Shown here: positions 1 through 46,867 of the stretch, one piece after another
Numbering within the stretch: position 1 is the stretch's first letter
Layout: the number at the start of each line of letters is the position of its first letter
DNA from: Caulobacteraceae bacterium
GTDB taxonomy: Bacteria; Pseudomonadota; Alphaproteobacteria; Caulobacterales; Caulobacteraceae
Length of the DNA stretch: 64,000 nt
Direction of reading: 5' to 3'
Assembly: GCA_035541575.1 (NCBI GenBank)
Contig: DATKMZ010000036.1
Span: 486 to 64,485, forward strand
Notes under the pieces: generated by a model
Seen by the model: the letters and a program-made list of their open reading frames with translations, nothing else
What the model was told of the DNA's origin: nothing
Database searches by the model: none
Program-made: the position numbers and the translations under genes

Positions 1-387
1 AAGCCCGGCGTAGACCTCGGCGTAGACCGCCTCGTAGCGCCGCGCGTAGGGTCCGCCTGGGCGAACGTCCGCGCCGCCGCCCGTCAGGCCGACGTCCCAC
101 GCGGTCTCGCCGATCCGGTGCGCATAGCCGACGTAGGCGGTGTAGCTCAGCGCGTCGCGATCGATGGCGCTCGCGCCGGTGACGCCCGCGTAGAGGCCGC
201 TGGGCGCATCGTAGCTCAGCGTGACGCCGATCGCGGGCCTTCCCTCGCTGAGGGAGACGCCCCGGTAGCGATTGTCGGACTGGAACTCGGCCTGGATCGC
301 AACTTGCGCCGCGGCCGGCGTCGTAGCGGCGAGCGCAAGGCCCGCCCAGATCGCGCCCAGCCAAAGCGGGCGCGGCCCCAACGTCAC
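1..387 (-). CDS. TorF-family (TIGR02001-like) putative outer-membrane porin, 3' end runs off the window
   Basis: Not in the ORF track. Manual translation from GTG at 387, which overlaps the TGA of the upstream subtilase (GTGA): MTLGPRPLWLGAIWAGLALAATTPAAAQVAIQAEFQSDNRYRGVSLSEGRPAIGVTLSYDAPSGLYAG. Signal peptide plus the SDxRYRGVSLS..PA motif typical of this family. Confidence 0.8.
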   Translation of the reverse strand, partial: MTLGPRPLWLGAIWAGLALAATTPAAAQVAIQAEFQSDNRYRGVSLSEGRPAIGVTLSYDAPSGLYAGVTGASAIDRDALSYTAYVGYAHRIGETAWDVGLTGGGADVRPGGPYARRYEAVYAEVYAGL

Positions 388-1610
388 TCGCGACGGCCCG
401 GGTCGAACGCCGCCTCGCGCAGCGGCGCGGCCGCGCATCTGTGGCCCGGGCCGAGCAGCGTCGCGCAGGCGTCGATAGCTCCGCCCGTCGGCGCTGTGGC
501 CAGCCTCAGCGGCGAGATGGGCGTGCGCTGGCGTATGAGCGCGACGAGGCCGCTGACGTGCGCGGCGGCGAACGAACTGCCGTTCACCAGCGCCCATTGG
601 CCGCCGGGCGTCGTGGTCGGCACCCCTTCCCCAGGCGCGGCGTAGACGCCGGCGGGCGCGCGGCCGGCCGCCTCGTCGGCGACTGCGATGACGCCAGGAT
701 GCGAGGCCGGGAAGCCGCCCGCCGGCAGCGCGGCGTCGAACGCCGCGACGGTGACGATGCGGCGCGCGTGGGCGATGTCGAGCAGCTTGCCGAGCAGCAG
801 GTCCGGCGGGCCGGCGATGCTGAGGTTCACCACCTGCGCGCTGTGGTCGATCGCGAAGCTGAGCGCCTTGGCGAGGCTCAAGGAGTCGCAAACGGTGTCA
901 CCCGCCGGCTCCTGCCAGCAGGCGCGCAGGGCCATCAGGCGCGAGCCCGGGGCCACGCCGGCGATGCCGACGCCGCGCGCGGCGATCACGCCGGCGACCG
1001 CGGTGCCGTGCCGTTCGGGCGTCTCGCCGTGGCCGGCGGCGAAGTTCTGGCTGACCGCGACCTGGCCGATGAGGTCGGGGTGTTCGCGGTCGACCATGCT
1101 GTCCACCACGGCCACGCGCACGTTGCGGCCGGTCGAGACGGTGTGGAGCAGCGCCAGGCGCCACTCCTTCGCCGCGGGCTGCGCCAGGAAGAGGCGGCCC
1201 TGCGGGGCCACGACGCCCTGGCCGCGGTAGAGGTTCATCGCCTGCGACCAGGCCACGGCCGGGTCGTGCGACAGGTGTTCGGCCATCTCGACCGTCGACT
1301 TGCCGGGCGGGGCGACAAACACGAAGCAGTCGACGCCGACCAGGGGCATCGGCCAGTTGTCGGCGACGGTCAGGCCGTTCTCGCGCGCCAGGCGGTCGGC
1401 GATCCGCCGCCGTGCGTTCTGGTCGGCGCCGCCGCCGTAGCCGCCGCCGAAGTCGGCGTTGGGGCTGGCGTGTTCGGGTGGCAGGCGCAGCATCACCAGC
1501 ACTTCGCGGCCGGGATCGGTCGGCTCGGCCGCGTTGGCGAGCGCCGTTCCGCCGGCGAGGACGAGGGCGCACGCCGCAACCCAGCCGCTGATGTGGGCCA
1601 GAAGTCTCAT
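384..1610 (-). CDS. Secreted S8 (subtilisin-family) serine peptidase
   Basis: Triad motifs VAVVDSMVD, RHGTAVAGVI and NGSSFAAAHVSG. Signal peptide MRLLAHISGW..ALANA. ATG 1610 overlaps the anti-sigma stop (ATGA). The ORF-track extension to 1949 is spurious. Confidence 0.9.
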   Translation of the reverse strand: MRLLAHISGWVAACALVLAGGTALANAAEPTDPGREVLVMLRLPPEHASPNADFGGGYGGGADQNARRRIADRLARENGLTVADNWPMPLVGVDCFVFVAPPGKSTVEMAEHLSHDPAVAWSQAMNLYRGQGVVAPQGRLFLAQPAAKEWRLALLHTVSTGRNVRVAVVDSMVDREHPDLIGQVAVSQNFAAGHGETPERHGTAVAGVIAARGVGIAGVAPGSRLMALRACWQEPAGDTVCDSLSLAKALSFAIDHSAQVVNLSIAGPPDLLLGKLLDIAHARRIVTVAAFDAALPAGGFPASHPGVIAVADEAAGRAPAGVYAAPGEGVPTTTPGGQWALVNGSSFAAAHVSGLVALIRQRTPISPLRLATAPTGGAIDACATLLGPGHRCAAAPLREAAFDPGRRE

Positions 1611-2251
1611 GGCGTGTCTCCCGCGATCGGCTCGGCCAGCGCGACGGCGGAACTGGCGCGCAGCGCCTTGAGCGCGGCTTCGCGCTGCGGCCGCGCGACG
1701 CGCAACGCGAAGGCGTCGGCGCCGTTCGGGCCCTCGGCGATCTGCGCGCCGCTGGCCCGCAAGACCTGGGCGATGTCTGCCGCTCGGGCCTCGGGCCTGA
1801 ACACCACCAGCACGTCGGCCGGCGGGCTCGGCGTGGGGCTGCTCAGAGCATGGAAGCGGGCAGGCGGCTCTGGCGCCGCGGCCTTCTGTGCGGGGACGGC
1901 GAGGAGGGCGACGATCGCCACGCCGGCGGCCGCGGTCCAGCCGAGCCAAGGCGTCCGCCAGGCCCTGACGGCCGCTCCGCGCGCCGCGGCGAAGGGGCCG
2001 CGCGGCGTTTCCGCCTCAGCTACACGGCGGCGCATGGCCTCCCATCCGCGCTCGATGTCGAGGGGCAGGGCGCCGACCTCGGCCTCGAGCCGCTGCTCGA
2101 GCAGAAGGTCCGCGCGGCACTTGGCGCAGGTCTCCAGGTGCGCAGCGACGCGCGCCCGCTCGTCGGCCTCCAGCCGGCCGGTCACGTACCAGGGCAACAG
2201 GAGCTGCGTGTCCTGGCAACGGTCGCCGGGGAGGCGGATCACCTTGCCCAT
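1607..2251 (-). CDS. Zinc-binding (zf-HC2/ZAS) transmembrane anti-sigma factor
   Basis: LLPWYVTGRL..HLETCAKC (HxxxCxxC), one TM segment (WLGWTAAAGVAIVALLAV) and a small C-terminal periplasmic domain. Lies directly downstream of an ECF sigma gene. Confidence 0.9.
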   Translation of the reverse strand: MGKVIRLPGDRCQDTQLLLPWYVTGRLEADERARVAAHLETCAKCRADLLLEQRLEAEVGALPLDIERGWEAMRRRVAEAETPRGPFAAARGAAVRAWRTPWLGWTAAAGVAIVALLAVPAQKAAAPEPPARFHALSSPTPSPPADVLVVFRPEARAADIAQVLRASGAQIAEGPNGADAFALRVARPQREAALKALRASSAVALAEPIAGDTP

Positions 2252-2258
2252 CGCCGCA

Positions 2259-2861
2259 TCAGAGCCAGTCGGCCAGCCGGCCGGGCAGCTTGTCGCGGAG
2301 GCGGCGGCGTGCGTGGAACATGCGGGTCTTCACAGTGTCCACCGGACAGTCCATCAGCTCGGCGATCTCGCGGTAGCCGATCTCGTGGAAGTAGGTGAGG
2401 TCGACGACCGCGCGGTGGTCGGCCGAAAGGCCGCCGATCGCGTCCAGCAATAGCTCCTGCACCTGGCGGCGGCCGAGCTGCTGCTCGGGTCCCGCCTCGC
2501 CGCTGGGGCGCAGGTCCGCGTCGAGATCCTCGACCGGCTCGTCGTGGCGGCTCAGCGCCTTCAGCGCCTTGCGGTAAGCGATGGCGAAGATCCAGGTCGA
2601 GACCTTGCTGCGGCCGTTGTAGCGCTCCGGCTGCTTCCAGACGACGAGCATGGTGTCGTTCAGCACTTCTTCCACCAGGTGCGGGCGGCGCAGGATCACG
2701 TTCAGGAAGCGCGTCAGGCGGGGATGGTAGTCGCGGTACAGCGTCTCGAACGCACGCAGGTCCTTGGCGCCGATGCGCTCGAGGAGCCGCACGTCGTCGG
2801 ACGCACGCTCCTGCGAGGTCGCCCCGGTCGCGCCGCTGGCCGCACCCTGCCTGCCGAACAT
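2259..2861 (-). CDS. ECF RNA polymerase sigma-70 factor
   Basis: Region 2 AFETLYRDY..EEVLNDTMLVVW..KVSTWIFAIAYRK and region 4 REIAELMDCPVDTVKTRMFHARRRL. Confidence 0.95.
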   Translation of the reverse strand: MFGRQGAASGATGATSQERASDDVRLLERIGAKDLRAFETLYRDYHPRLTRFLNVILRRPHLVEEVLNDTMLVVWKQPERYNGRSKVSTWIFAIAYRKALKALSRHDEPVEDLDADLRPSGEAGPEQQLGRRQVQELLLDAIGGLSADHRAVVDLTYFHEIGYREIAELMDCPVDTVKTRMFHARRRLRDKLPGRLADWL

Positions 2862-2886
2862 CCAATGTCCCTACACTACGGACGGT

Positions 2887-2914
2887 AGTTCCCGGTCCGG
2901 GCCACAAGGTTCAA
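2887..2914 (-). promoter_or_regulatory. Putative ECF autoregulatory promoter TTGAACC-N15-GGAACT
   Basis: Minus strand: TTGAACC ttgtggcccggaccg GGAACT, ending 26 nt before the sigma ATG. The same motif occurs at 4819-4846 and 4903-4930. Confidence 0.75.
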
Positions 2915-2955
2915 TCCCGCCGGGCCGCGAAGTGTAGGCCAACCGCGCCGGCGCG

Positions 2956-3354
2956 TCACTTCAGCGAGCCGAGATAGGCGATCAGCTGGTCGAGCTGCTG
3001 CGGACTCTTCAGGCCCGGATAGGTCATCTTCACCCCGGGCAGGTAGCGCTGCGGCGCCGGCAGGTAAGCGCGAAGGCGGTCGGGGGTCCAGGCGAAACCG
3101 GCGTGCTTCATCGTCGTCGAGTAGGCGAACCCCGCGATAGATCCCGCGGGCCGCCCCACGACGCCGAACAGCGGTGGGCCGATCAGGGCCGGGCGGCTCC
3201 GCGCGTCCGAGTGACAGGAACTGCACTGGGAGGCGAACACGCCCCGGCCGGCGGCGGCGTCGGCGACGGGGCCTGGCGAGGCGAGGGCGGACGCTGGGGT
3301 GACGGCGGCGAGCATCACGGCGCCGAGCGCCGCGCGAACTAGAACGCGGTCCAT
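2956..3354 (-). CDS. Periplasmic class I c-type cytochrome (cytochrome c2 family)
   Basis: MDRVLVRAALGAVMLAA.. signal peptide, CSSCH heme motif, IGPPLFGVVGRPAGS, distal Met in PGVKMTY. The start overlaps the upstream gene end by 16 nt. Confidence 0.9.
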   Translation of the reverse strand: MDRVLVRAALGAVMLAAVTPASALASPGPVADAAAGRGVFASQCSSCHSDARSRPALIGPPLFGVVGRPAGSIAGFAYSTTMKHAGFAWTPDRLRAYLPAPQRYLPGVKMTYPGLKSPQQLDQLIAYLGSLK

Positions 3355-4682
3355 GTGAAGAGCCTCAAGGTGTTGATGTCGGACGCCCGACGCCCTGCTC
3401 CGTCGAAATCCGTGCTCGCGCCGGCGAAGCGCGTGTAGGCCGTGTACTGAAGGCCGACGCGCAGGTTCAGCCGCCGCTTCGGCTGCGCATCGCCGCCGAA
3501 CGGCGTGCCGTCGATCTGCACCATGACGCCGCTCGTGTCCGGCCGCGCCGTGCGGCTGGCGGCGTAGAGCAGCGGATCGGCTGAACCGCTGGTGTCGAAC
3601 CCGGCCACCGTCAGGCCGATCTTGTTTCGCCAGTAGTAGGCGACGTCGCCGCGCACGTCGTCGAGGACGTCGTGCGCGTTGGCGGCAAGGCCCAGCGGCT
3701 GCGAGGCTCTCAGATCCTGACGTTCGTGCGTGAAGCGGGCGTTGAGGGTGACGACATCGCCGTTCGAGAGCGCGATGTAGTCCGACGCGTCGATTCCTGC
3801 GTCCGTGAGGACGTCGCTGACCCCCGCGCTGCGGTCCCGGGCGGGGAAGACGCCGGCCCGCAGGAAGAAGGCGCCGCCCTCCAGCGTCTGCTCGCCGAAC
3901 GTCTTCTGCCAGGCGAAGCGGGCGTAGGGGGCGAAGCCATCGATGTCGCCCGGACCGATCGGGTCGGCGCCAACGTTGCGCAGGAAGCGCGTGCTCGGCG
4001 AGCCGTAGGCGCCGGCCTCGAGGTAGACTTCGGAGTCCACCCAGGCGTAGCCGGTGAGGCCGATCACTTCCTGGGCCAGCGCGCCTGAGACCAGCGGCGC
4101 GGCCGGCGCCGACGGCGCGAGCGCGGAGTCGGTGTAAGGGTAACCCCACGCCGGCAGCGTATTCCAAGGGTCCTGGACCGTCGGATTGTTGTTGAGGCTC
4201 GCGCCGAAAAGGACGGTGGAATCGCCGAAGCTCTTCGTGGTCACCGCGCGCAGATCGGCGTTGTCCCAGCTGAAGCTTTCGCCGACGCCGTCGTAGGTGA
4301 CCTGCGCAAACGCGCCGAGATGCTGCCCCGCGCCGCCGGCGATGAACACGCTCACCTGGTCGAGCGCGACGTTGTTGTTGTCGTGGAAGCCGGGCGGCGG
4401 TCCGTCCTGGTCCTTCTGCGTGTTCAGGTACGAGGCGACCGCCATCACCGCGAGCGGGACGTTGATCGGGCCGGTGCGCGTCGTGTAGCCGCCGATCTTG
4501 AAGTTGCGGCCGTAAGGCGTGAGCTGAGGGCCGAAGCCCCCCACGTGGCAGGCCTGACACGGCTGGCCGGTCTGGGCCGCGAACGCCGGCACTGCGTGCG
4601 CCGGACCGGCGAGGACGAGGATCGCTCCGGCGCAGATCGCACCGGCGATGCGAAAATCAAAATCCACCCGTCGCGACCACAT
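3339..4682 (-). CDS. Cyc2-like fused monoheme cytochrome / outer-membrane beta-barrel
   Basis: After the signal peptide (AHA): VPAFAAQTGQPCQACHVGGFGPQLTPYGRNFKIGGY, matching the Cyc2 N-terminal pattern PxFARQTGxxCxxCH..PQLTPxGRxFK..G(Y/F). The remainder is Tyr/Trp-rich beta-strands ending in Phe (WTAF). The start may instead be GTG 4667. Confidence 0.8.
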   Translation of the reverse strand: MWSRRVDFDFRIAGAICAGAILVLAGPAHAVPAFAAQTGQPCQACHVGGFGPQLTPYGRNFKIGGYTTRTGPINVPLAVMAVASYLNTQKDQDGPPPGFHDNNNVALDQVSVFIAGGAGQHLGAFAQVTYDGVGESFSWDNADLRAVTTKSFGDSTVLFGASLNNNPTVQDPWNTLPAWGYPYTDSALAPSAPAAPLVSGALAQEVIGLTGYAWVDSEVYLEAGAYGSPSTRFLRNVGADPIGPGDIDGFAPYARFAWQKTFGEQTLEGGAFFLRAGVFPARDRSAGVSDVLTDAGIDASDYIALSNGDVVTLNARFTHERQDLRASQPLGLAANAHDVLDDVRGDVAYYWRNKIGLTVAGFDTSGSADPLLYAASRTARPDTSGVMVQIDGTPFGGDAQPKRRLNLRVGLQYTAYTRFAGASTDFDGAGRRASDINTLRLFTWTAF

Positions 4683-4818
4683 CTATTGGTCTCGCCAAAT
4701 AAGCTCTGCTTCTGGACTGTCGATCACCACCGCTCGGGGAGGTTACAACCAGCTAGTCGGAACGAAGTACGGTCATCGATCGCTGGATAACCTCCGAGGG
4801 TGCTGCGTCTGCGGCGTC

Positions 4819-4846
4819 AATACCCGCTACGCGCGAAACGGTTCAA
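4819..4846 (-). promoter_or_regulatory. Putative ECF promoter for the cyc2-like operon, TTGAACC-N15-GGTATT
   Basis: Minus strand: TTGAACC gtttcgcgcgtagcg GGTATT gac, about 140 nt upstream of the 4682 start. Confidence 0.65.
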
Positions 4847-4902
4847 ACGCGCGGATGGGGTGACGCGCGGTGGCGGAGGGCCGCTGTTTTTCGCCATCTG
4901 GT

Positions 4903-4930
4903 TTGAACCGTGGCCGCTCAGACGGGAATC
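4903..4930 (+). promoter_or_regulatory. Putative ECF promoter for the TIGR03118 operon, TTGAACC-N15-GGAATC
   Basis: Plus strand: TTGAACC gtggccgctcagacg GGAATC gac, 92 nt upstream of ATG 5023. Confidence 0.7.
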
Positions 4931-5022
4931 GACGGGCGCTGATCCCGCTTCGCGCGGCGGAGATCGGGGGGCTCAAGCGCGCCGAGGCGGCCCGTCGAAG
5001 CGAGGTTGGAGAGGAGCCCCCG

Positions 5023-6156
5023 ATGAAAACTGCAGCCGCACTCGCAAGCCTGGCCCTGGGCCTGATGGCTACCAGCGCGCTGGCGACGCCACGACCGCTC
5101 AGCGACGCGCAGCTGAGCGGCATCGTCGCCGGCGCGAACTTCATTGTCATCGACGAGATTTCCGACACCAACACGGTGGGCGCCAATCCGCCCGACGGCG
5201 CGCTGGTCAACGCCTGGGGCCTGTCGGAATTCCCGGATGGCGGCCCGCTGTGGGTCTCCAACAACGGCTCCGGCACGTCGACGTTCTACAACTTCAACAC
5301 GTTCGCGAAGGTCGGCCAGATCACCGTGCCCGGCTCAGGCGGCGCGCAGGGTGTGCCGACCGGCACTGTGTTCACCAGCGTCAAGGGCGACGACTTCGCC
5401 GTCACCGAGAACGGCAAGACCAGCCACAGCTTCTTCCTGTTCGATGGCGAGGACGGCACGATCTCCGGCTGGACGCCGGCGGTCGACCCCGGTTCGGCGG
5501 TCATCGCGGTCGACCAGTCGATGAGCGGCGCGGTGTTCAAGGGCCTGGCGATCGACGTGGACGCGTCCGAGCACCAGGACCGCCTGTTCGCCGCGGACTT
5601 CGTCCAGAACAAGGTCGAGGTGTTCAACGGCAAGTTCCAGCAGATCGGTTCGTTCACCGACAATTCGCTGCCGGCCGGCTATGCGCCGTTCAACGTCCAG
5701 GTGCTGCACGACAAGGTCTACGTAGCGTTCGCGCTGCGGGGCGACGGACTCGACGAGCAGCATGGCGCCGGTCTCGGCTTCGTCGAGGTGTTCAACGAGC
5801 ACGGCGTGAAGATCAAGACGCTGGTCTCCGGCGGGCCGCTCAACGCGCCGTGGGGCCTGACGATAGCGCCCAAGAGCTTCGGCAAGTTCGCCGGCGCGCT
5901 GCTCGTCGGCAACTTCGGCGATGGCAAGATCAACGCCTTCAACCCGAACACCGGCGAGTTCCTCGGCACGCTGAGCTCGCCCGGCGGCGCGCCGGTCTCG
6001 ATCGACGGTCTCTGGGCGTTGCGTAACGGACCTGACGGTTCGGTCGTATTCTCTTCCGGTCCTGACGATGAAAACCATGGCCTGGTCGGCGTCATCCGAC
6101 CCAGCTGGGCCAAGGCGTCCTGGGCGTACCAGTCGCACGTCGTCATGGGCCACTAG
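5023..6156 (+). CDS. Secreted TIGR03118-family protein (probable beta-propeller) with a double-glycine-type leader and no PEP-CTERM tail
   Basis: SD gaggag, then MKTAAALASL.. signal peptide. Family motifs LVNAWGL, PTGTVF, GEDGTISGW, FKGLAI, LPAGYAPFNVQ, PLNAPWGL, LLVGNFGDGKINAF, IDGLWAL. Confidence 0.85.
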   Translation: MKTAAALASLALGLMATSALATPRPLSDAQLSGIVAGANFIVIDEISDTNTVGANPPDGALVNAWGLSEFPDGGPLWVSNNGSGTSTFYNFNTFAKVGQITVPGSGGAQGVPTGTVFTSVKGDDFAVTENGKTSHSFFLFDGEDGTISGWTPAVDPGSAVIAVDQSMSGAVFKGLAIDVDASEHQDRLFAADFVQNKVEVFNGKFQQIGSFTDNSLPAGYAPFNVQVLHDKVYVAFALRGDGLDEQHGAGLGFVEVFNEHGVKIKTLVSGGPLNAPWGLTIAPKSFGKFAGALLVGNFGDGKINAFNPNTGEFLGTLSSPGGAPVSIDGLWALRNGPDGSVVFSSGPDDENHGLVGVIRPSWAKASWAYQSHVVMGH

Positions 6157-6169
6157 TCCTGGTCTGCCG

Positions 6170-6871
6170 GTGACCCGTCCCTCGCACGGGCGGACCAGTT
6201 CGGCCGCGTTCGCCATCGCTACAACCCTCGCGGCGGTGGCGAACGCGGCCGTAGTCTTCGCGGCGGCGCGCCCGGACGCGAAGCTGATCCATTCCCTCGC
6301 CGAGATCCGCAACGCGCAGGTGGTCCGCCAGGAGTGGGACCTCTCGTGCGGGGCTGCGGCCGTGGCCACGGTGCTCACCTACCAGCTGGGCCACGCCGTA
6401 ACCGAGCGGGAGGTAGCGCTCGCCCTGCTGCGGCGGACGACGCCGGCGCTGGTGCGCAGCCGTCAGGGATTCTCGCTGCTCGACCTCAAGATCTATGCGG
6501 CCACGCAAGGGTACGCGGCCGCCGGTTACGCCGACATGGATCTCCCCGACCTGGATGCCGCCGCGCCGGCGATCGTGCCGATCCGGTCGCACGGTTTCCG
6601 GCACTTCGTGGTCTACCGGGGCCGAGCCGGCGGCCTGGTGCTGGTGGCCGATCCGGCGTTCGGCAACCGGACGATGCCGGAGGCGGCGTTCCGCGAGGCA
6701 TGGGCCGGCGGCGTCGGCTTCGTCGTATTCGACCCGGCCGATCCGCACCCGCCCAATCGCATGGGCGCGCCGGCCGGGCTCTTTCTGGCAACGAGCGCCC
6801 AAGCGGAACGCCGCGCCGTCTTCGGCCCAGGGCCTGTCGTCGCCAGCAGTCCGGTGGGGAGCGCGCCATGA
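6170..6871 (+). CDS. Stand-alone periplasmic C39 cysteine peptidase (FapD-like)
   Basis: VVRQEWDLSCGAAA (Cys), FRHFVV (His), VADPAFGN (Asp), GFSLLDLK. N-terminal hydrophobic signal. GTG 6170 chosen as start, 13 nt after the upstream stop. Confidence 0.9.
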   Translation: MTRPSHGRTSSAAFAIATTLAAVANAAVVFAAARPDAKLIHSLAEIRNAQVVRQEWDLSCGAAAVATVLTYQLGHAVTEREVALALLRRTTPALVRSRQGFSLLDLKIYAATQGYAAAGYADMDLPDLDAAAPAIVPIRSHGFRHFVVYRGRAGGLVLVADPAFGNRTMPEAAFREAWAGGVGFVVFDPADPHPPNRMGAPAGLFLATSAQAERRAVFGPGPVVASSPVGSAP

Positions 6872-7995
6872 ACCGCTTCGCAATGCTCGCAATGGCCGCC
6901 GCGGGCTTCGCGCTCGCAGGGCCGGCGCTCGCCCAGCCGCTGACCCGGGAAGAGCTGCAGCAGGCGCTGGCCCAGCGCGACCAGGCTATCGCCGCGCTCG
7001 AAAGGCGGATCGCGGCGCTGGAAGCGCAGCAAGGGCGCGAAACACCGCCGGCTGCGAGCGCGATCAAGACCGTGCCAGCCACCGACGCCGCGCCCGGCGC
7101 CGGCGTCGCCGCAGCCGCTTCGGGCGCAAGCGCCGGCGACGAGGTCGCGCTGCAGGCGCTCTCGCGCGGCCTGGTGCAGCGCGGGCTGCTGCTGCTCCCG
7201 GCGTGGAGCTTCGAGCTCTCCCCGAGCGTCGGCTACGACCACTCGCAGCAACAGGGTCTGGCGCTGGTCGACACGCCCGAGGGCATCTCGACCGTCAACG
7301 ACCGGCGCCAGCGCGACGACGACATCGAGCCGGCGATCAGCGCGCGGCTCGGCCTGCCCTGGCGCAGCCAGGTGCAGATCAGCGTCCCGTTCGATTGGAA
7401 GCGCACCTCGTCGGCGCTCGGCGACAACGCCGAGATCAACCACACCGCCGCGCATGTCGGCGACGTGCAGGTGGAGTTGAGCCACCAGTTCCTGGTGGAG
7501 GACAGCGGCTGGCGGCCGGACCTCATCGCCGGCATCGGCTGGCGCGCCCCGACGGGACTCAACGCCTACAAAGCCGAAGTCGCGGCGGTGGCGAACGGCG
7601 TCGGCAGCAACGCGGTCACCGGACGTCTGACGGCCCTGAAGACAATCGATCCGCTGGTCGTCTTCTCGACGCTCTCCTACGCCCACAACTTCAGCTATCC
7701 GCAGAGCGTCGGTCGCGTCACGGTCGGCGACACCGCCGACTGGGTGCTCGGAGGCCTCCTGGCCGTCAGTCCCGACACTTCGCTCAGCTTCGGCTTCGAC
7801 CAGCAGTTCAAGATGGTCACCCGCGTGAACGGCGCGAAGATCGCCGGCAGCGACGGCGTCGCGGCCTCGGCCCAGTTCGGCCTCGATCAGGTGCTGAACG
7901 CGCGCGCGCTGCTCGACGTGACGGTCAGCGTGGGCGTCACCAAGGACGCACCGGATTACGCCGTCATGGTCTCGCTGCCGATCCGGCTGCGGTGA
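6868..7995 (+). CDS. FapF-like outer-membrane beta-barrel transporter with N-terminal coiled coil
   Basis: Signal peptide, heptads EELQQALAQRDQAIAALERRIAALEAQQ, an Ala-rich linker, then ALSRGLVQRGLLLL..GDVQVELSHQFLVE..PDLIAGIGWRAPTG..PDYAVMVSLPIRL. ATGA-coupled to the C39 gene, as fapD/fapF-type pairs are. Confidence 0.75.
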   Translation: MNRFAMLAMAAAGFALAGPALAQPLTREELQQALAQRDQAIAALERRIAALEAQQGRETPPAASAIKTVPATDAAPGAGVAAAASGASAGDEVALQALSRGLVQRGLLLLPAWSFELSPSVGYDHSQQQGLALVDTPEGISTVNDRRQRDDDIEPAISARLGLPWRSQVQISVPFDWKRTSSALGDNAEINHTAAHVGDVQVELSHQFLVEDSGWRPDLIAGIGWRAPTGLNAYKAEVAAVANGVGSNAVTGRLTALKTIDPLVVFSTLSYAHNFSYPQSVGRVTVGDTADWVLGGLLAVSPDTSLSFGFDQQFKMVTRVNGAKIAGSDGVAASAQFGLDQVLNARALLDVTVSVGVTKDAPDYAVMVSLPIRLR

Positions 7996-8015
7996 GGCGC
8001 CCTCGGCGACGGCGT

Positions 8016-8816
8016 TCAGGCAGACGCCGGGAACTGGTCGGCGAGATAGCGCAGATCGGCGGCCATGCCGGTGTTGGCGGTGACGCCGAGACCCAACCAG
8101 TCCTGCATCTGCGGCCCGAGCGAGGCCTGGGTCTCGGCCGAGAGGCAGGCGTTCCAGTTCACCTGAGGCCTGAGGAAGGGGACCGTGTAGTAGCCAAACA
8201 GCAGCGCCCGGTCCTCGTCGTTGGTGACGTTGGCGCCTGAGGTGTGCCACATCCGCCCGTCCATCACGACGATCGAGCCGGCTTTCGCTTCGAATGGCGT
8301 CAGGCGTTTGTCCGCATCCGGCGGAACCTCGGCGCGCGTGCGCCAGCGGTGACTGCCCGGGATGTAGAGCGTGGCGCCGTTGTCGCGACGCACGTCCGTC
8401 AGGCACCAGATGATGTTGACCGCCCACGGCTGCAGCCAGGGCTCGGGCACGACGAGCGACTGGTCCGAGTGCAGCGCCATCGACTCCGAGCCGGGCCGGG
8501 CGATGTTGGCGGTGAAGTTCGAGATCAGGAACTGCGGGCCGATCACCTGCCGCACCATCTCGAGCGCGACCGGATGCTGGATCAGTTCGCGGAATATCTC
8601 GTCGCGCTCGAGCAGGTAGAAGACCCGCACGTTGCTTGCGTTCGGATCGAGCACCGGCAGGAACGTCGGCATGCCCCGCCGCTCGCTCTCGTCGGCCGCC
8701 GCCCAGAGCCTTCGCAGCGCGTCGGCCGTCTTTGCGGGCGGGAGCACGTTCGGCACGACGCACCAGCCGTCCTCGGCGAGCCGGACCTTGGCGTTGTCTG
8801 CCGCTGACCCGTCCAT
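8016..8816 (-). CDS. Phytanoyl-CoA dioxygenase (PhyH) family Fe(II)/2OG dioxygenase
   Basis: ALHSDQ (HxD), TDVRRDNGAT, WHTSG..NVT..DRAL. Confidence 0.88.
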   Translation of the reverse strand: MDGSAADNAKVRLAEDGWCVVPNVLPPAKTADALRRLWAAADESERRGMPTFLPVLDPNASNVRVFYLLERDEIFRELIQHPVALEMVRQVIGPQFLISNFTANIARPGSESMALHSDQSLVVPEPWLQPWAVNIIWCLTDVRRDNGATLYIPGSHRWRTRAEVPPDADKRLTPFEAKAGSIVVMDGRMWHTSGANVTNDEDRALLFGYYTVPFLRPQVNWNACLSAETQASLGPQMQDWLGLGVTANTGMAADLRYLADQFPASA

Positions 8817-46052: not shown

Positions 46053-46867
46053 CGGCCTACTCCGAAGCTGCCGAACGAAAGGAAATGCGTGTCGACGCGC
46101 AGGTCGGCCGCGGCGAGAGCCAGCGCGGCGGCGCAGAGGCCGAGCGCCAGCACGTAGAGCGCCAGTCCCAGCGCCCATTCGCCCCAACTCAGCGGCCGCG
46201 CGGTGGGCCGAAGCTGGCCCATGCGCAGCGATCCCAGCACGCTGAGGCCGATGAAGACGGGCGCGATCAGAGAGCCGCGGCTCAAGGTCCAGAGCACGGC
46301 GAGGCCGCCGACGACAACCAGCGCCAACCGCTCGAGCTGCGGATGGATGCGGGCCAGCACCGGGCCGAGCGCCTTCGAGCCGTCGAGCGGCGGTGCGGGC
46401 GCGAGGTTGAGCAGATTGAACCCGGCCACGACGAGCGCGCCGACGTCCCAGCCGCGCTGGCCGGTCCACGCGGCGAGACCGAAGAAGGGCAGGGCGGCGG
46501 CCAGGCCAAACACCGGACCGGCGAGCGCGATCACGACGCCCTTGAGCTCGGTGTCGGGCGGCCGCGCCATCGTCGCCGCGCCGCCGAAGAACGGGATGAT
46601 GCGGATGCGGCTTGGGCCGCTGCCGGCGGCGTTGATGACGAGCACGTGTCCGAACTCGTGCACGAAGACGCCCAGCACGGCGGCCACCGCTCCGAGCCAG
46701 CCGATCTGCCAGGCGATCCAGGCGGCCAGGATCAGGGTCGAGACGCCGCCCCAGAAGAATTCCGCGAGCGGCGAGGTCTTGGCGTCCGGCGGCGCTGGCT
46801 CCGGCTGCGGCTCGGGAACGGCCCAGGGCGAGACGGGCGTCGGATCGGTGATCGGCGTCTCAGACAT
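46049..46867 (-). CDS. Site-2 (M50) intramembrane metalloprotease
   Basis: [25 protein letters not shown]; multiple TM segments. Confidence 0.9.

Follow-up and report, generated by a model that had tools for sequence, protein, structure and literature searches.

Genes and motif copies at the locus

The DNA considered here is a stretch of 64,000 nucleotides (the window) from a Caulobacteraceae bacterium, corresponding to C36:486-64485 of an assembly of 4.24 Mb in 188 contigs with 70% G+C; contigs are cited below as C numbers, genomes of the same genus as G numbers and loci of relatives as L numbers. The source is a wetland metagenome-assembled genome (MAG), and the DNA runs in which this genome occurs are wetland metagenomes. 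At its beginning the window carries the gene of a sigma factor of the extracytoplasmic function (ECF) type in an operon with three other genes, and next to it two operons that diverge from each other; an earlier note on this DNA had proposed that one promoter motif, read by this sigma factor, precedes all three. The features concerned are collected in Table 1. The gene calls were confirmed throughout, namely the ECF sigma factor, the zf-HC2 anti-sigma factor, the S8 subtilase, the TorF/Gcw_chp porin, the class I cytochrome c, the haem-porin, the TIGR03118 protein, the C39 peptidase and the distant FapF/FilC-like protein.

Table 1. Genes, motif copies and predicted promoters at the beginning of the window
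Feature	Position	Strand	Remarks
TorF/Gcw_chp outer-membrane porin	1..438, on to C36:~160	-	cut by the window start; full frame read from the contig
Secreted S8 subtilase, 408 aa	384..1610	-	Peptidase_S8, 1.8e-21
Anti-sigma factor, single-pass, ZAS-type, 214 aa	1607..2251	-	zf-HC2, 6.6e-10
ECF (group IV) sigma factor, 200 aa	2259..2861	-	Sigma70_r2, 1.4e-12; Sigma70_r4_2, 8.6e-13
Predicted ECF promoter P-sigma	2881..2917	-	-35 TTGAACC 2914-2908; -10 region CGGGAACTAC 2894-2885
Motif copy, sigma operon	2914-2887	-	TTGAACCTTGTGGCCCGGACCGGGAACT
Periplasmic class I cytochrome c, 132 aa	2956..3354	-	Cytochrom_C, 1.3e-8; overlaps the stop of the Cyc2-like gene
Cyc2-type fused cytochrome-porin, 447 aa	3339..4682	-	signal peptide, one CXXCH, predicted 16-strand barrel; no Pfam family
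Predicted ECF promoter P-cyc2	4813..4849	-	-35 TTGAACC 4846-4840; -10 region CGGGTATTGAC 4826-4816
Motif copy, Cyc2-like/cytochrome c operon	4846-4819	-	TTGAACCGTTTCGCGCGTAGCGGGTATT
Predicted ECF promoter P-T3118	4900..4936	+	-35 TTGAACC 4903-4909; -10 region CGGGAATCGAC 4923-4933
Motif copy, TIGR03118/C39/FapF-like operon	4903-4930	+	TTGAACCGTGGCCGCTCAGACGGGAATC
TIGR03118-family secreted protein, 377 aa	5023..6156	+	TIGR03118, 309.4 bits, above the cut-off of 79.95
Stand-alone C39 peptidase	6068..6871	+	Peptidase_C39, 3.1e-13
Outer-membrane protein, 375 aa, N-terminal coiled coil	6868..7995	+	distant to FapF and FilC

The sigma factor consists of the sigma-2 and sigma-4 domains only and scores 88.5 bits with the general ECF model TIGR02937, whose cut-off is 42.9. 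Its best NCBIfam subfamily is PRK12515, at 141.5 bits and below the cut-off of 236, and the protein reaches the cut-off of no curated NCBIfam sigma subfamily; in 14 control (model) genomes no PRK12515 member over the cut-off was found either. Within its own genome the protein is the single member of its subfamily (one match at E<=1e-30). The stop codon of the sigma gene lies 7 nt before the start of the anti-sigma gene, whose own stop overlaps the ATG of the S8 gene (ATGA), and therefore the sigma gene and the three genes that follow it form one tight operon. The porin at the end of this operon scores 46.6 bits with Gcw_chp (cut-off 24) and 42.7 bits with TIGR02001 (cut-off 47.15), both on a fragment of 146 aa; its true start is probably near position 389.

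The pattern TTGAACC-N13-CGGGWAYY has three exact matches in the window, which we read directly at the places and with the identical spacing reported earlier, and none in 100 shuffles. A search of the whole genome (4.24 Mb) returned the same three matches and no others, whereas about 0.03 matches per genome are expected from base composition. All three copies are intergenic, lie within 2 kb and are oriented towards the adjacent gene. For P-sigma the predicted start is at about 2878-2880, leaving a leader of about 20 nt before the ATG of the sigma gene at 2861; the leaders predicted for P-cyc2 and P-T3118 are longer, about 130 nt to the ATG at 4682 and about 85 nt to the ATG at 5023. These two promoters stand back-to-back, with 56 nt between their -35 boxes.

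Taken alone, TTGAACC occurs eight times in the window against 2.4 expected. The other five copies lack the second box, as had been claimed, since no further position of the window reaches 12 bits with the relatives-only matrix described below; the earlier listing of these copies was right for the six that it named and left out those at 46416 and 61579. When the pattern was relaxed to TGAACC-N13-CGGGWA, one additional match appeared in the genome (C65:40732), which is intragenic; it was rejected as a chance occurrence, being located inside overlapping long open reading frames (ORFs) and scoring less than 12 bits. A simple scan of positions 1-8400 found no sigma-70 consensus promoters and no meaningful terminators, and an Rfam search of the same positions gave no credible family. 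The predicted leader of the Cyc2-like gene (4683-4812) is accordingly without an Rfam match; its counterparts in the related loci L072, L076 and L089 are 171-261 nt long. This leader may be the remnant of a gene for an Iro-like high-potential iron-sulfur protein (HiPIP), because in relatives such a gene sits in this place, or it may be a regulatory element.

Recurrence of the motif in relatives

In order to score the motif with sites from outside the window, we built a position matrix of 37 nt from 19 sites found upstream of sigma genes in 18 further genomes from the GTDB genus of this bacterium, with the window's own sites excluded, using the 300 nt upstream of each sigma orthologue (57-73% identity). 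These regions contain TGAACC and then a second conserved block at a fixed distance. In the matrix, T5-C10 (TGAACC) is nearly invariant, positions 11-13 are T-rich and G26 is present in 15 of the 19 sites, while the -10 half, which was not selected for, emerged from the alignment with A29 in 18, T30 in 16 and A33 in 17 of the 19. The second box of the earlier motif, given as CG-GG(A/T)A(C/T)(T/C), is better written GGnAYnnAC (A29, T/C30, A33).

When the window was scanned with this matrix, exactly three positions reached at least 12 bits, and these are the three motif copies. In the genome as a whole (about 8.5 million positions) they rank first, second and third, with 29.4 bits for P-cyc2, 25.9 for P-sigma and 19.6 for P-T3118. 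The next match, at 18.0 bits, is at C158:512-548; it takes in the stop of a gene for a short-chain dehydrogenase, and its end lies 1 nt ahead of the ATG of a gene for a secreted hydrolase of the beta-lactamase family; this site could be a leaderless target or a chance match, and we regard it as a doubtful candidate.

Concerning more distant relatives, a sigma alignment was scanned against 185,579 species genomes, and the best 80 of 406 sigma relatives (60-78% identity), with 0.81 Mb of surrounding sequence in total, were taken as related loci. They come mostly from MAGs of Caulobacteraceae, Phenylobacterium and Asticcacaulis, but also from Sphingomonadaceae and from a few Beta- and Gammaproteobacterial MAGs; the cultured carriers are Caulobacter sp. 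S45, Sphingomonas oligophenolica, S. oligoaromativorans, Rhizorhabdus argentea, Phenylobacterium sp. LjRoot225, Asticcacaulis solisilvae and Sphingomonas sp. 7/4-4. Among the loci whose contigs reach far enough, 62 of 64 contain the S8 gene and 57 of 59 the TorF gene, and the order sigma, anti-sigma, S8, TorF is nearly invariant. In Asticcacaulis solisilvae (L140), plasmid pAS1 (736 kb) bears the complete cassette and, with it, a TIGR03118 gene that has the motif in front. A plasmid-borne cassette is in keeping with the patchy distribution across classes and suggests horizontal transfer.

The conservation of the motif in orthologous loci, on which the earlier proposal depended, was checked in these loci. 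In 63 of the 79 further loci the 330 nt upstream of the sigma gene contain a site that scores 17 bits or more and usually ends 15-25 nt before the gene, and most of the sigma loci that fall short of this score have TGAACC...GCAC variants. Besides these, 46 other distinct sites in the related loci score 17 bits or more, where about 0.2 would be expected from the background of the window's own genome (one non-locus match in 8.5 million positions). Every one of them is oriented at the gene downstream.

The genes behind these further sites encode TIGR03118 proteins in 11 loci; sites upstream of TIGR03118 genes are those of L072-L076, L096, L109, L115, L127, L130, L140, L151, L155 and L156. In six loci the target is either a small protein with a twin-arginine (TAT) signal and four cysteines followed by a Cyc2 homologue, or a Cyc2 homologue directly. 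The remaining classes are NHL-type propellers, cupredoxins (Cupredoxin_1, 4e-11), cytochrome b561, a YceI protein, PEP-CTERM proteins, RTX-repeat proteins, a rubrerythrin-like membrane protein and a Gly-rich small secreted protein. Scored against the Iro HiPIP model NF041615, the small TAT-signal protein reaches 45-61 bits over its full length (E 9e-12 to 8e-17) with a cut-off of 100, and it has no Pfam HiPIP match; by sequence it resembles Iro, at a level below equivalog status. The Gly-rich protein, of about 130 aa, is secreted and carries the block HTTGQP(S/N)Q(S/T)C...TPGN...APGSAFNP; in L080, L085, L090, L097 and L135 its gene is divergent from the sigma gene and stands behind a strong motif site, and it belongs to no Pfam or NCBIfam family.

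Two of the related MAG loci, L072 and L076, repeat the layout of the window, with FapF, C39 and TIGR03118 genes diverging from Cyc2 and cytochrome c genes that are followed by the sigma operon. In both, the three sites score 25-37 bits, and L089 resembles them. The position of P-cyc2 is occupied by a site in all three, and an alignment of their divergent regions is conserved only in the two motif copies, with length differences of 12-32 nt between them. Elsewhere in the genus, sites not linked to the sigma gene precede TIGR03118 genes (G010, G035, G023) and an operon of HiPIP, Cyc2 and NHL genes (G010). The regulon had been described as self-contained, which is true of this genome and does not extend to its relatives, where such unlinked members exist. 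Just upstream of a HiPIP-Cyc2-NHL operon with a motif site, locus L152 (G010:C408) has a short ORF (2684-2980) that matches only the N-terminal, pre-catalytic residues 35-133 of the S8 subtilase, with 46% identity; it may encode a free-standing propeptide-like protein.

We also evaluated whether the motif goes together with the sigma gene, in a scan that covered 61 genomes. The strict pattern TTGAACC-N15-GGNAYNNA occurs in 14 of the 20 genus genomes that carry the sigma gene (27 sites) and in one of the 17 that lack it (Fisher p = 1.2e-4). The matches in that single sigma-negative genome (G011) were considered as a promoter set and rejected, since they are instead copies of a dispersed repeat, TTGAACCACGGAAAACACGGAGGGCACGGA, found six times on six contigs, in which the pattern matches by accident. 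The repeat looks like a small mobile or REP-type (repetitive extragenic palindromic) element.

Proteins of the flanking operons and the anti-sigma factor

Published criteria for Cyc2 are a signal peptide, a single CXXCH, the motif AxPxFAR[Q/K][T/Y] before the haem site, PxL after it and a length of at least 365 aa (Keffer et al. 2021, PMC8406198). The Cyc2-like protein of the window has a hydrophobic leader ending in AHA, a single CQACH at residues 42-46 and more than 365 aa. Its sequence around the haem site is AVPAFAAQT-GQP-CQACH-VGGFG-PQL, in which PQL fits PxL and an A replaces the R of the signature; the exact AVPAFARQT is present in relatives such as L052 and L074. An AlphaFold2 (AF2) model (predicted TM-score, pTM, 0.80) has 16 strands between residues 77 and 446. 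As judged from its sequence, this haem-porin appears to be of the Cyc2 type, and Fe(II) oxidation is its putative function. The cytochrome c encoded behind it matches the c-550 CycA model at 2.9e-20, below the cut-off.

Homologues of Cyc2 occur in 27 of 36 genus genomes and in none of the other sampled families of the order. The window's own genome has a second one (C112:6417-7739, 61% identity), located behind a gene for a TAT-signal Iro-like HiPIP. This second copy is without the ECF motif, so that the genome would possess one regulated and one unregulated Cyc2 copy.

In the opposite operon, the TIGR03118 protein carries a PLSDAQLSGIVAG leader after its signal peptide (window 5098-5133). We compared this leader across loci that include L072-L076, L083, L089 and L119: the form L[ST]DxQ[LM]xx..AG is present in all eight TIGR03118 homologues encoded beside a C39 gene and in none of the eleven without a C39 neighbour. 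This pattern fits a predicted processing by the C39 peptidase, with export through the channel that resembles FapF/FilC. The start codon of the C39 gene is uncertain, the listed ORF overlapping the 3' end of the TIGR03118 gene. With the closest curated models the peptidase scores 106 bits for FilB (cut-off 475) and 94.3 for FapD (cut-off 330), and the outer-membrane protein scores 79.8 bits for FapF (cut-off 700) and 25.9 for FilC. The export system had been called Fap-type; with scores that lie well below the equivalog cut-offs for FapF and FapD, this designation holds as a resemblance only, and the sole gene upstream of the pair is that of the TIGR03118 protein.

In the anti-sigma factor the HxxxCxxC residues H38, C42 and C45 are invariant across 53 orthologues. 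Its AF2 model, with a mean predicted local distance difference test (pLDDT) of 83.6, places the transmembrane helix at 102-123 and contains a confidently modelled periplasmic domain of beta-alpha-beta-beta-alpha-beta topology at residues 147-208. A sequence search of the PDB gave no match, and with the Pfam family Fervidolysin_NPro-like, whose cut-off is 21, the score stays at 19.2 bits. In Foldseek the C-terminal domain retrieves subtilisin propeptides (TM 0.63-0.68 on the target) mixed with ribosomal S6 and ACT folds, all weakly (E 0.007-0.08). A role of the modelled domain as a propeptide-like partner of the neighbouring S8 protease would agree with these non-specific matches.

A candidate ECF regulon and its possible role

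The results support a putatively autoregulated ECF regulon that is local in this genome, and the three motif copies are very likely promoters read by RNA polymerase with the ECF sigma factor encoded at 2259-2861. Four lines of comparison lead to this reading: the motif is conserved at sigma orthologues, it recurs at TIGR03118 and Cyc2 genes, the window's copies are the top three of the genome with the matrix, and motif and sigma gene occur together across the genus. These independent tests support, as a comparative inference, the proposal of the earlier note that the sigma factor autoregulates and co-activates the flanking operons.

Several observations weigh against this reading or narrow it. 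The genome contains about 12-19 ECF-like genes, and for this reason it is by adjacency, the logic of autoregulation and co-occurrence that the motif is assigned to this sigma factor. As to the matrix, its -35 half was picked by eye through TGAAC and so was seeded by the very motif under test; full independence therefore belongs to the -10 half and the downstream tests only. P-T3118 is the weakest of the three sites and comes near the best match outside the locus. Most Cyc2 homologues of the genus lie behind a HiPIP gene and have no motif; the sigma factor would therefore control only some Cyc2 copies, and not obligatorily. The evidence for a signalling role of the S8 protease consists of synteny and a weak fold resemblance. 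Finally, RNA runs with this MAG's sequence were looked for and none was found.

As to what such a regulon would do, the recurring redox carriers suggest a theme of periplasmic or extracellular electron transfer, or of metals and redox; a general response of surface remodelling is equally open, given the heterogeneity of the remaining targets. In its fuller form the latter explanation takes the regulon as an envelope-stress and surface-remodelling response to a signal other than iron or redox, with Cyc2, HiPIP and cupredoxins as incidental cargo, and we consider it quite possible, if a little short of probable. The mixed targets (PEP-CTERM, RTX-like, TPR and Gly-rich small proteins, DUF6662 outer-membrane proteins) agree with it, as does the fact that the universal members are only the sigma factor, the anti-sigma factor, the S8 protease and TorF, with Cyc2 located within 6 kb in only 10 of the 80 related loci; but redox carriers, namely Cyc2, Iro-like HiPIP, cytochrome c, cupredoxin and cytochrome b561 with YceI, recur in independent lineages. 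A more specific and more speculative possibility, which we put forward as a doubtful one, is that the cassette is a sensor-regulator of Fe(II) or periplasmic redox state for extracytoplasmic electron transfer in Caulobacteraceae, Sphingomonadaceae and some Beta- and Gammaproteobacteria, none of which count as iron oxidisers: its own subtilase would trigger it by cutting an anti-sigma domain that mimics a propeptide, and it would switch on Cyc2, the secreted TIGR03118 propellers and, as periplasmic carriers, Iro-like HiPIP, cytochrome c and cupredoxin. If this were true, it would be the first known transcription factor for neutrophilic cyc2 and a new mode of ECF sigma activation.

As to which protein reads the motif, it is conceivable that another factor does so, either a different ECF sigma factor with a similar AAC-type -35 or a DNA-binding regulator, and that the adjacent sigma gene is just one of its targets. 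The dozen or more ECF-like genes of the genome would supply candidates, and GAAC-type -35 boxes are common to many ECF groups. However, within the genus the motif goes with the sigma gene, and it also accompanies that gene in Alpha-, Beta- and Gammaproteobacterial loci, while its bipartite shape, fixed spacing, gene-ward orientation and short distance to the sigma start are traits of a promoter rather than of an operator, and the sites are single and without dyad symmetry; we therefore judge this explanation improbable. Still less credible is that P-sigma is genuine and the two sites of the divergent region are non-functional look-alikes, arisen by chance or local duplication, with the flanking operons outside the regulon here, for although the score on the TIGR03118 side approaches the background and the leaders, at 85-130 nt, are on the long side for ECF promoters, the same two positions are occupied in L072 and L076, sites whose spacers and flanks vary stand at TIGR03118 or Cyc2 genes in many further arrangements, chance would yield only a few hundredths of a strict match per genome, and no sigma-70-type promoter is detectable for either operon.

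Starting from the sigma factor of the cassette as the reader of the motif, it is possible to hypothesize how the module would work. At rest, the co-transcribed membrane anti-sigma factor, with a cytoplasmic ZAS domain, one helix and a small periplasmic domain, would hold the sigma factor. An envelope signal would inactivate the anti-sigma factor, most likely by proteolysis involving the always-adjacent S8 subtilase, which possibly acts on the periplasmic domain before an intramembrane cleavage. The freed sigma factor would then transcribe its own operon (sigma, anti-sigma, S8 and TorF-type porin), providing positive feedback with a built-in reset, and would also transcribe the genes of the Cyc2-type cytochrome-porin with the periplasmic cytochrome c and those of the TIGR03118 protein, the C39 peptidase and the FapF/FilC-like outer-membrane channel. 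In relatives the same sigma/promoter pair would also control Iro-like HiPIP, cupredoxins, cytochrome b561/YceI, beta-propeller and PEP-CTERM proteins, and from this target set the output would consist of redox and surface proteins that are periplasmic, located in the outer membrane or secreted. The reading of the motif by the sigma factor, the start positions, the proteolytic activation and the link to Fe(II) or redox are all what we infer from these comparisons.

Parts of this arrangement are familiar. As in the RpoE-RseA-DegS/RseP system of E. coli and the SigW-RsiW-PrsW system of B. subtilis, a two-domain sigma factor, distantly similar to the RpoE and SigW structures (E 1e-14 to 1e-8), is accompanied by a co-transcribed single-pass anti-sigma factor and a linked protease gene, and a predicted bipartite promoter with AAC in the -35 stands in front of its own operon. 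Unlike in those modules, the operon itself encodes the protease, a secreted S8 subtilase, the C-terminal part of the anti-sigma factor is a small ferredoxin-like domain weakly resembling subtilase propeptides, a TorF-type porin is a fixed fourth member and the -10 is GGnAYnnAC instead of CGTC or TCTGA. The main text of the ECF reclassification paper contains no mention of a peptidase context.

Concerning the flanking operons, the window's haem-porin shares with the Cyc2 iron oxidases of Acidithiobacillus ferrooxidans and with Mariprofundus Cyc2PV-1 the signal peptide, the single CXXCH, PxL, the length over 365 aa and the predicted 16-strand barrel, together with a close form of the motif AxPxFA(R)QT (PMC8406198), and the Cyc2 genes behind Iro-like HiPIP genes in relatives recall A. 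ferrooxidans, where Cyc2 is named alongside HiPIP. In contrast to known Cyc2 proteins, the window's copy has A for the R of the motif and a c-550-like cytochrome, not a HiPIP, as partner, and the hosts belong to the Caulobacteraceae and Sphingomonadaceae, which are not known to oxidise iron. The pair formed by a periplasmic stand-alone C39 peptidase and a coiled-coil outer-membrane protein is like the FapD/FapF and FilB/FilC pairs, and its best NCBIfam matches are FilB/FapD and FapF/FilC; it differs from the Fap and Fil systems in its scores, far below the equivalog cut-offs (106 against 475, 94 against 330 and 80 against 700), and in having no genes for amyloid or pilin subunits. The exported cargo is here likely the globular TIGR03118 protein with its LSDxQLxxIVAG leader.

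Although an autoregulated ECF sigma factor is in itself of a familiar kind, what many bacteria of soils and wetlands appear to share is a widely distributed and uncharacterised four-gene ECF cassette with a defined motif and a candidate regulon that includes Cyc2-type porin-cytochromes. Cyc2 is the main marker gene for inferring microbial iron oxidation in genomes and metagenomes, and to our knowledge almost nothing has been described about the regulation of cyc2 outside acidophiles. A full-text search of the literature returned no paper linking cyc2 with ECF or anti-sigma control, and for TIGR03118 only incidental mentions. The sigma factor described here would be a first testable candidate regulator for Cyc2-type cytochromes, and the conserved sigma/promoter pair gives a direct experimental handle in the cultured carriers; this pair, compact and apparently orthogonal, may also serve in the design of synthetic circuits. 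For the families involved, the predicted regulon puts the uncharacterised TIGR03118 proteins in the functional context of Cyc2, and the four-gene cassette with its in-operon subtilase may represent an undescribed route of ECF activation.

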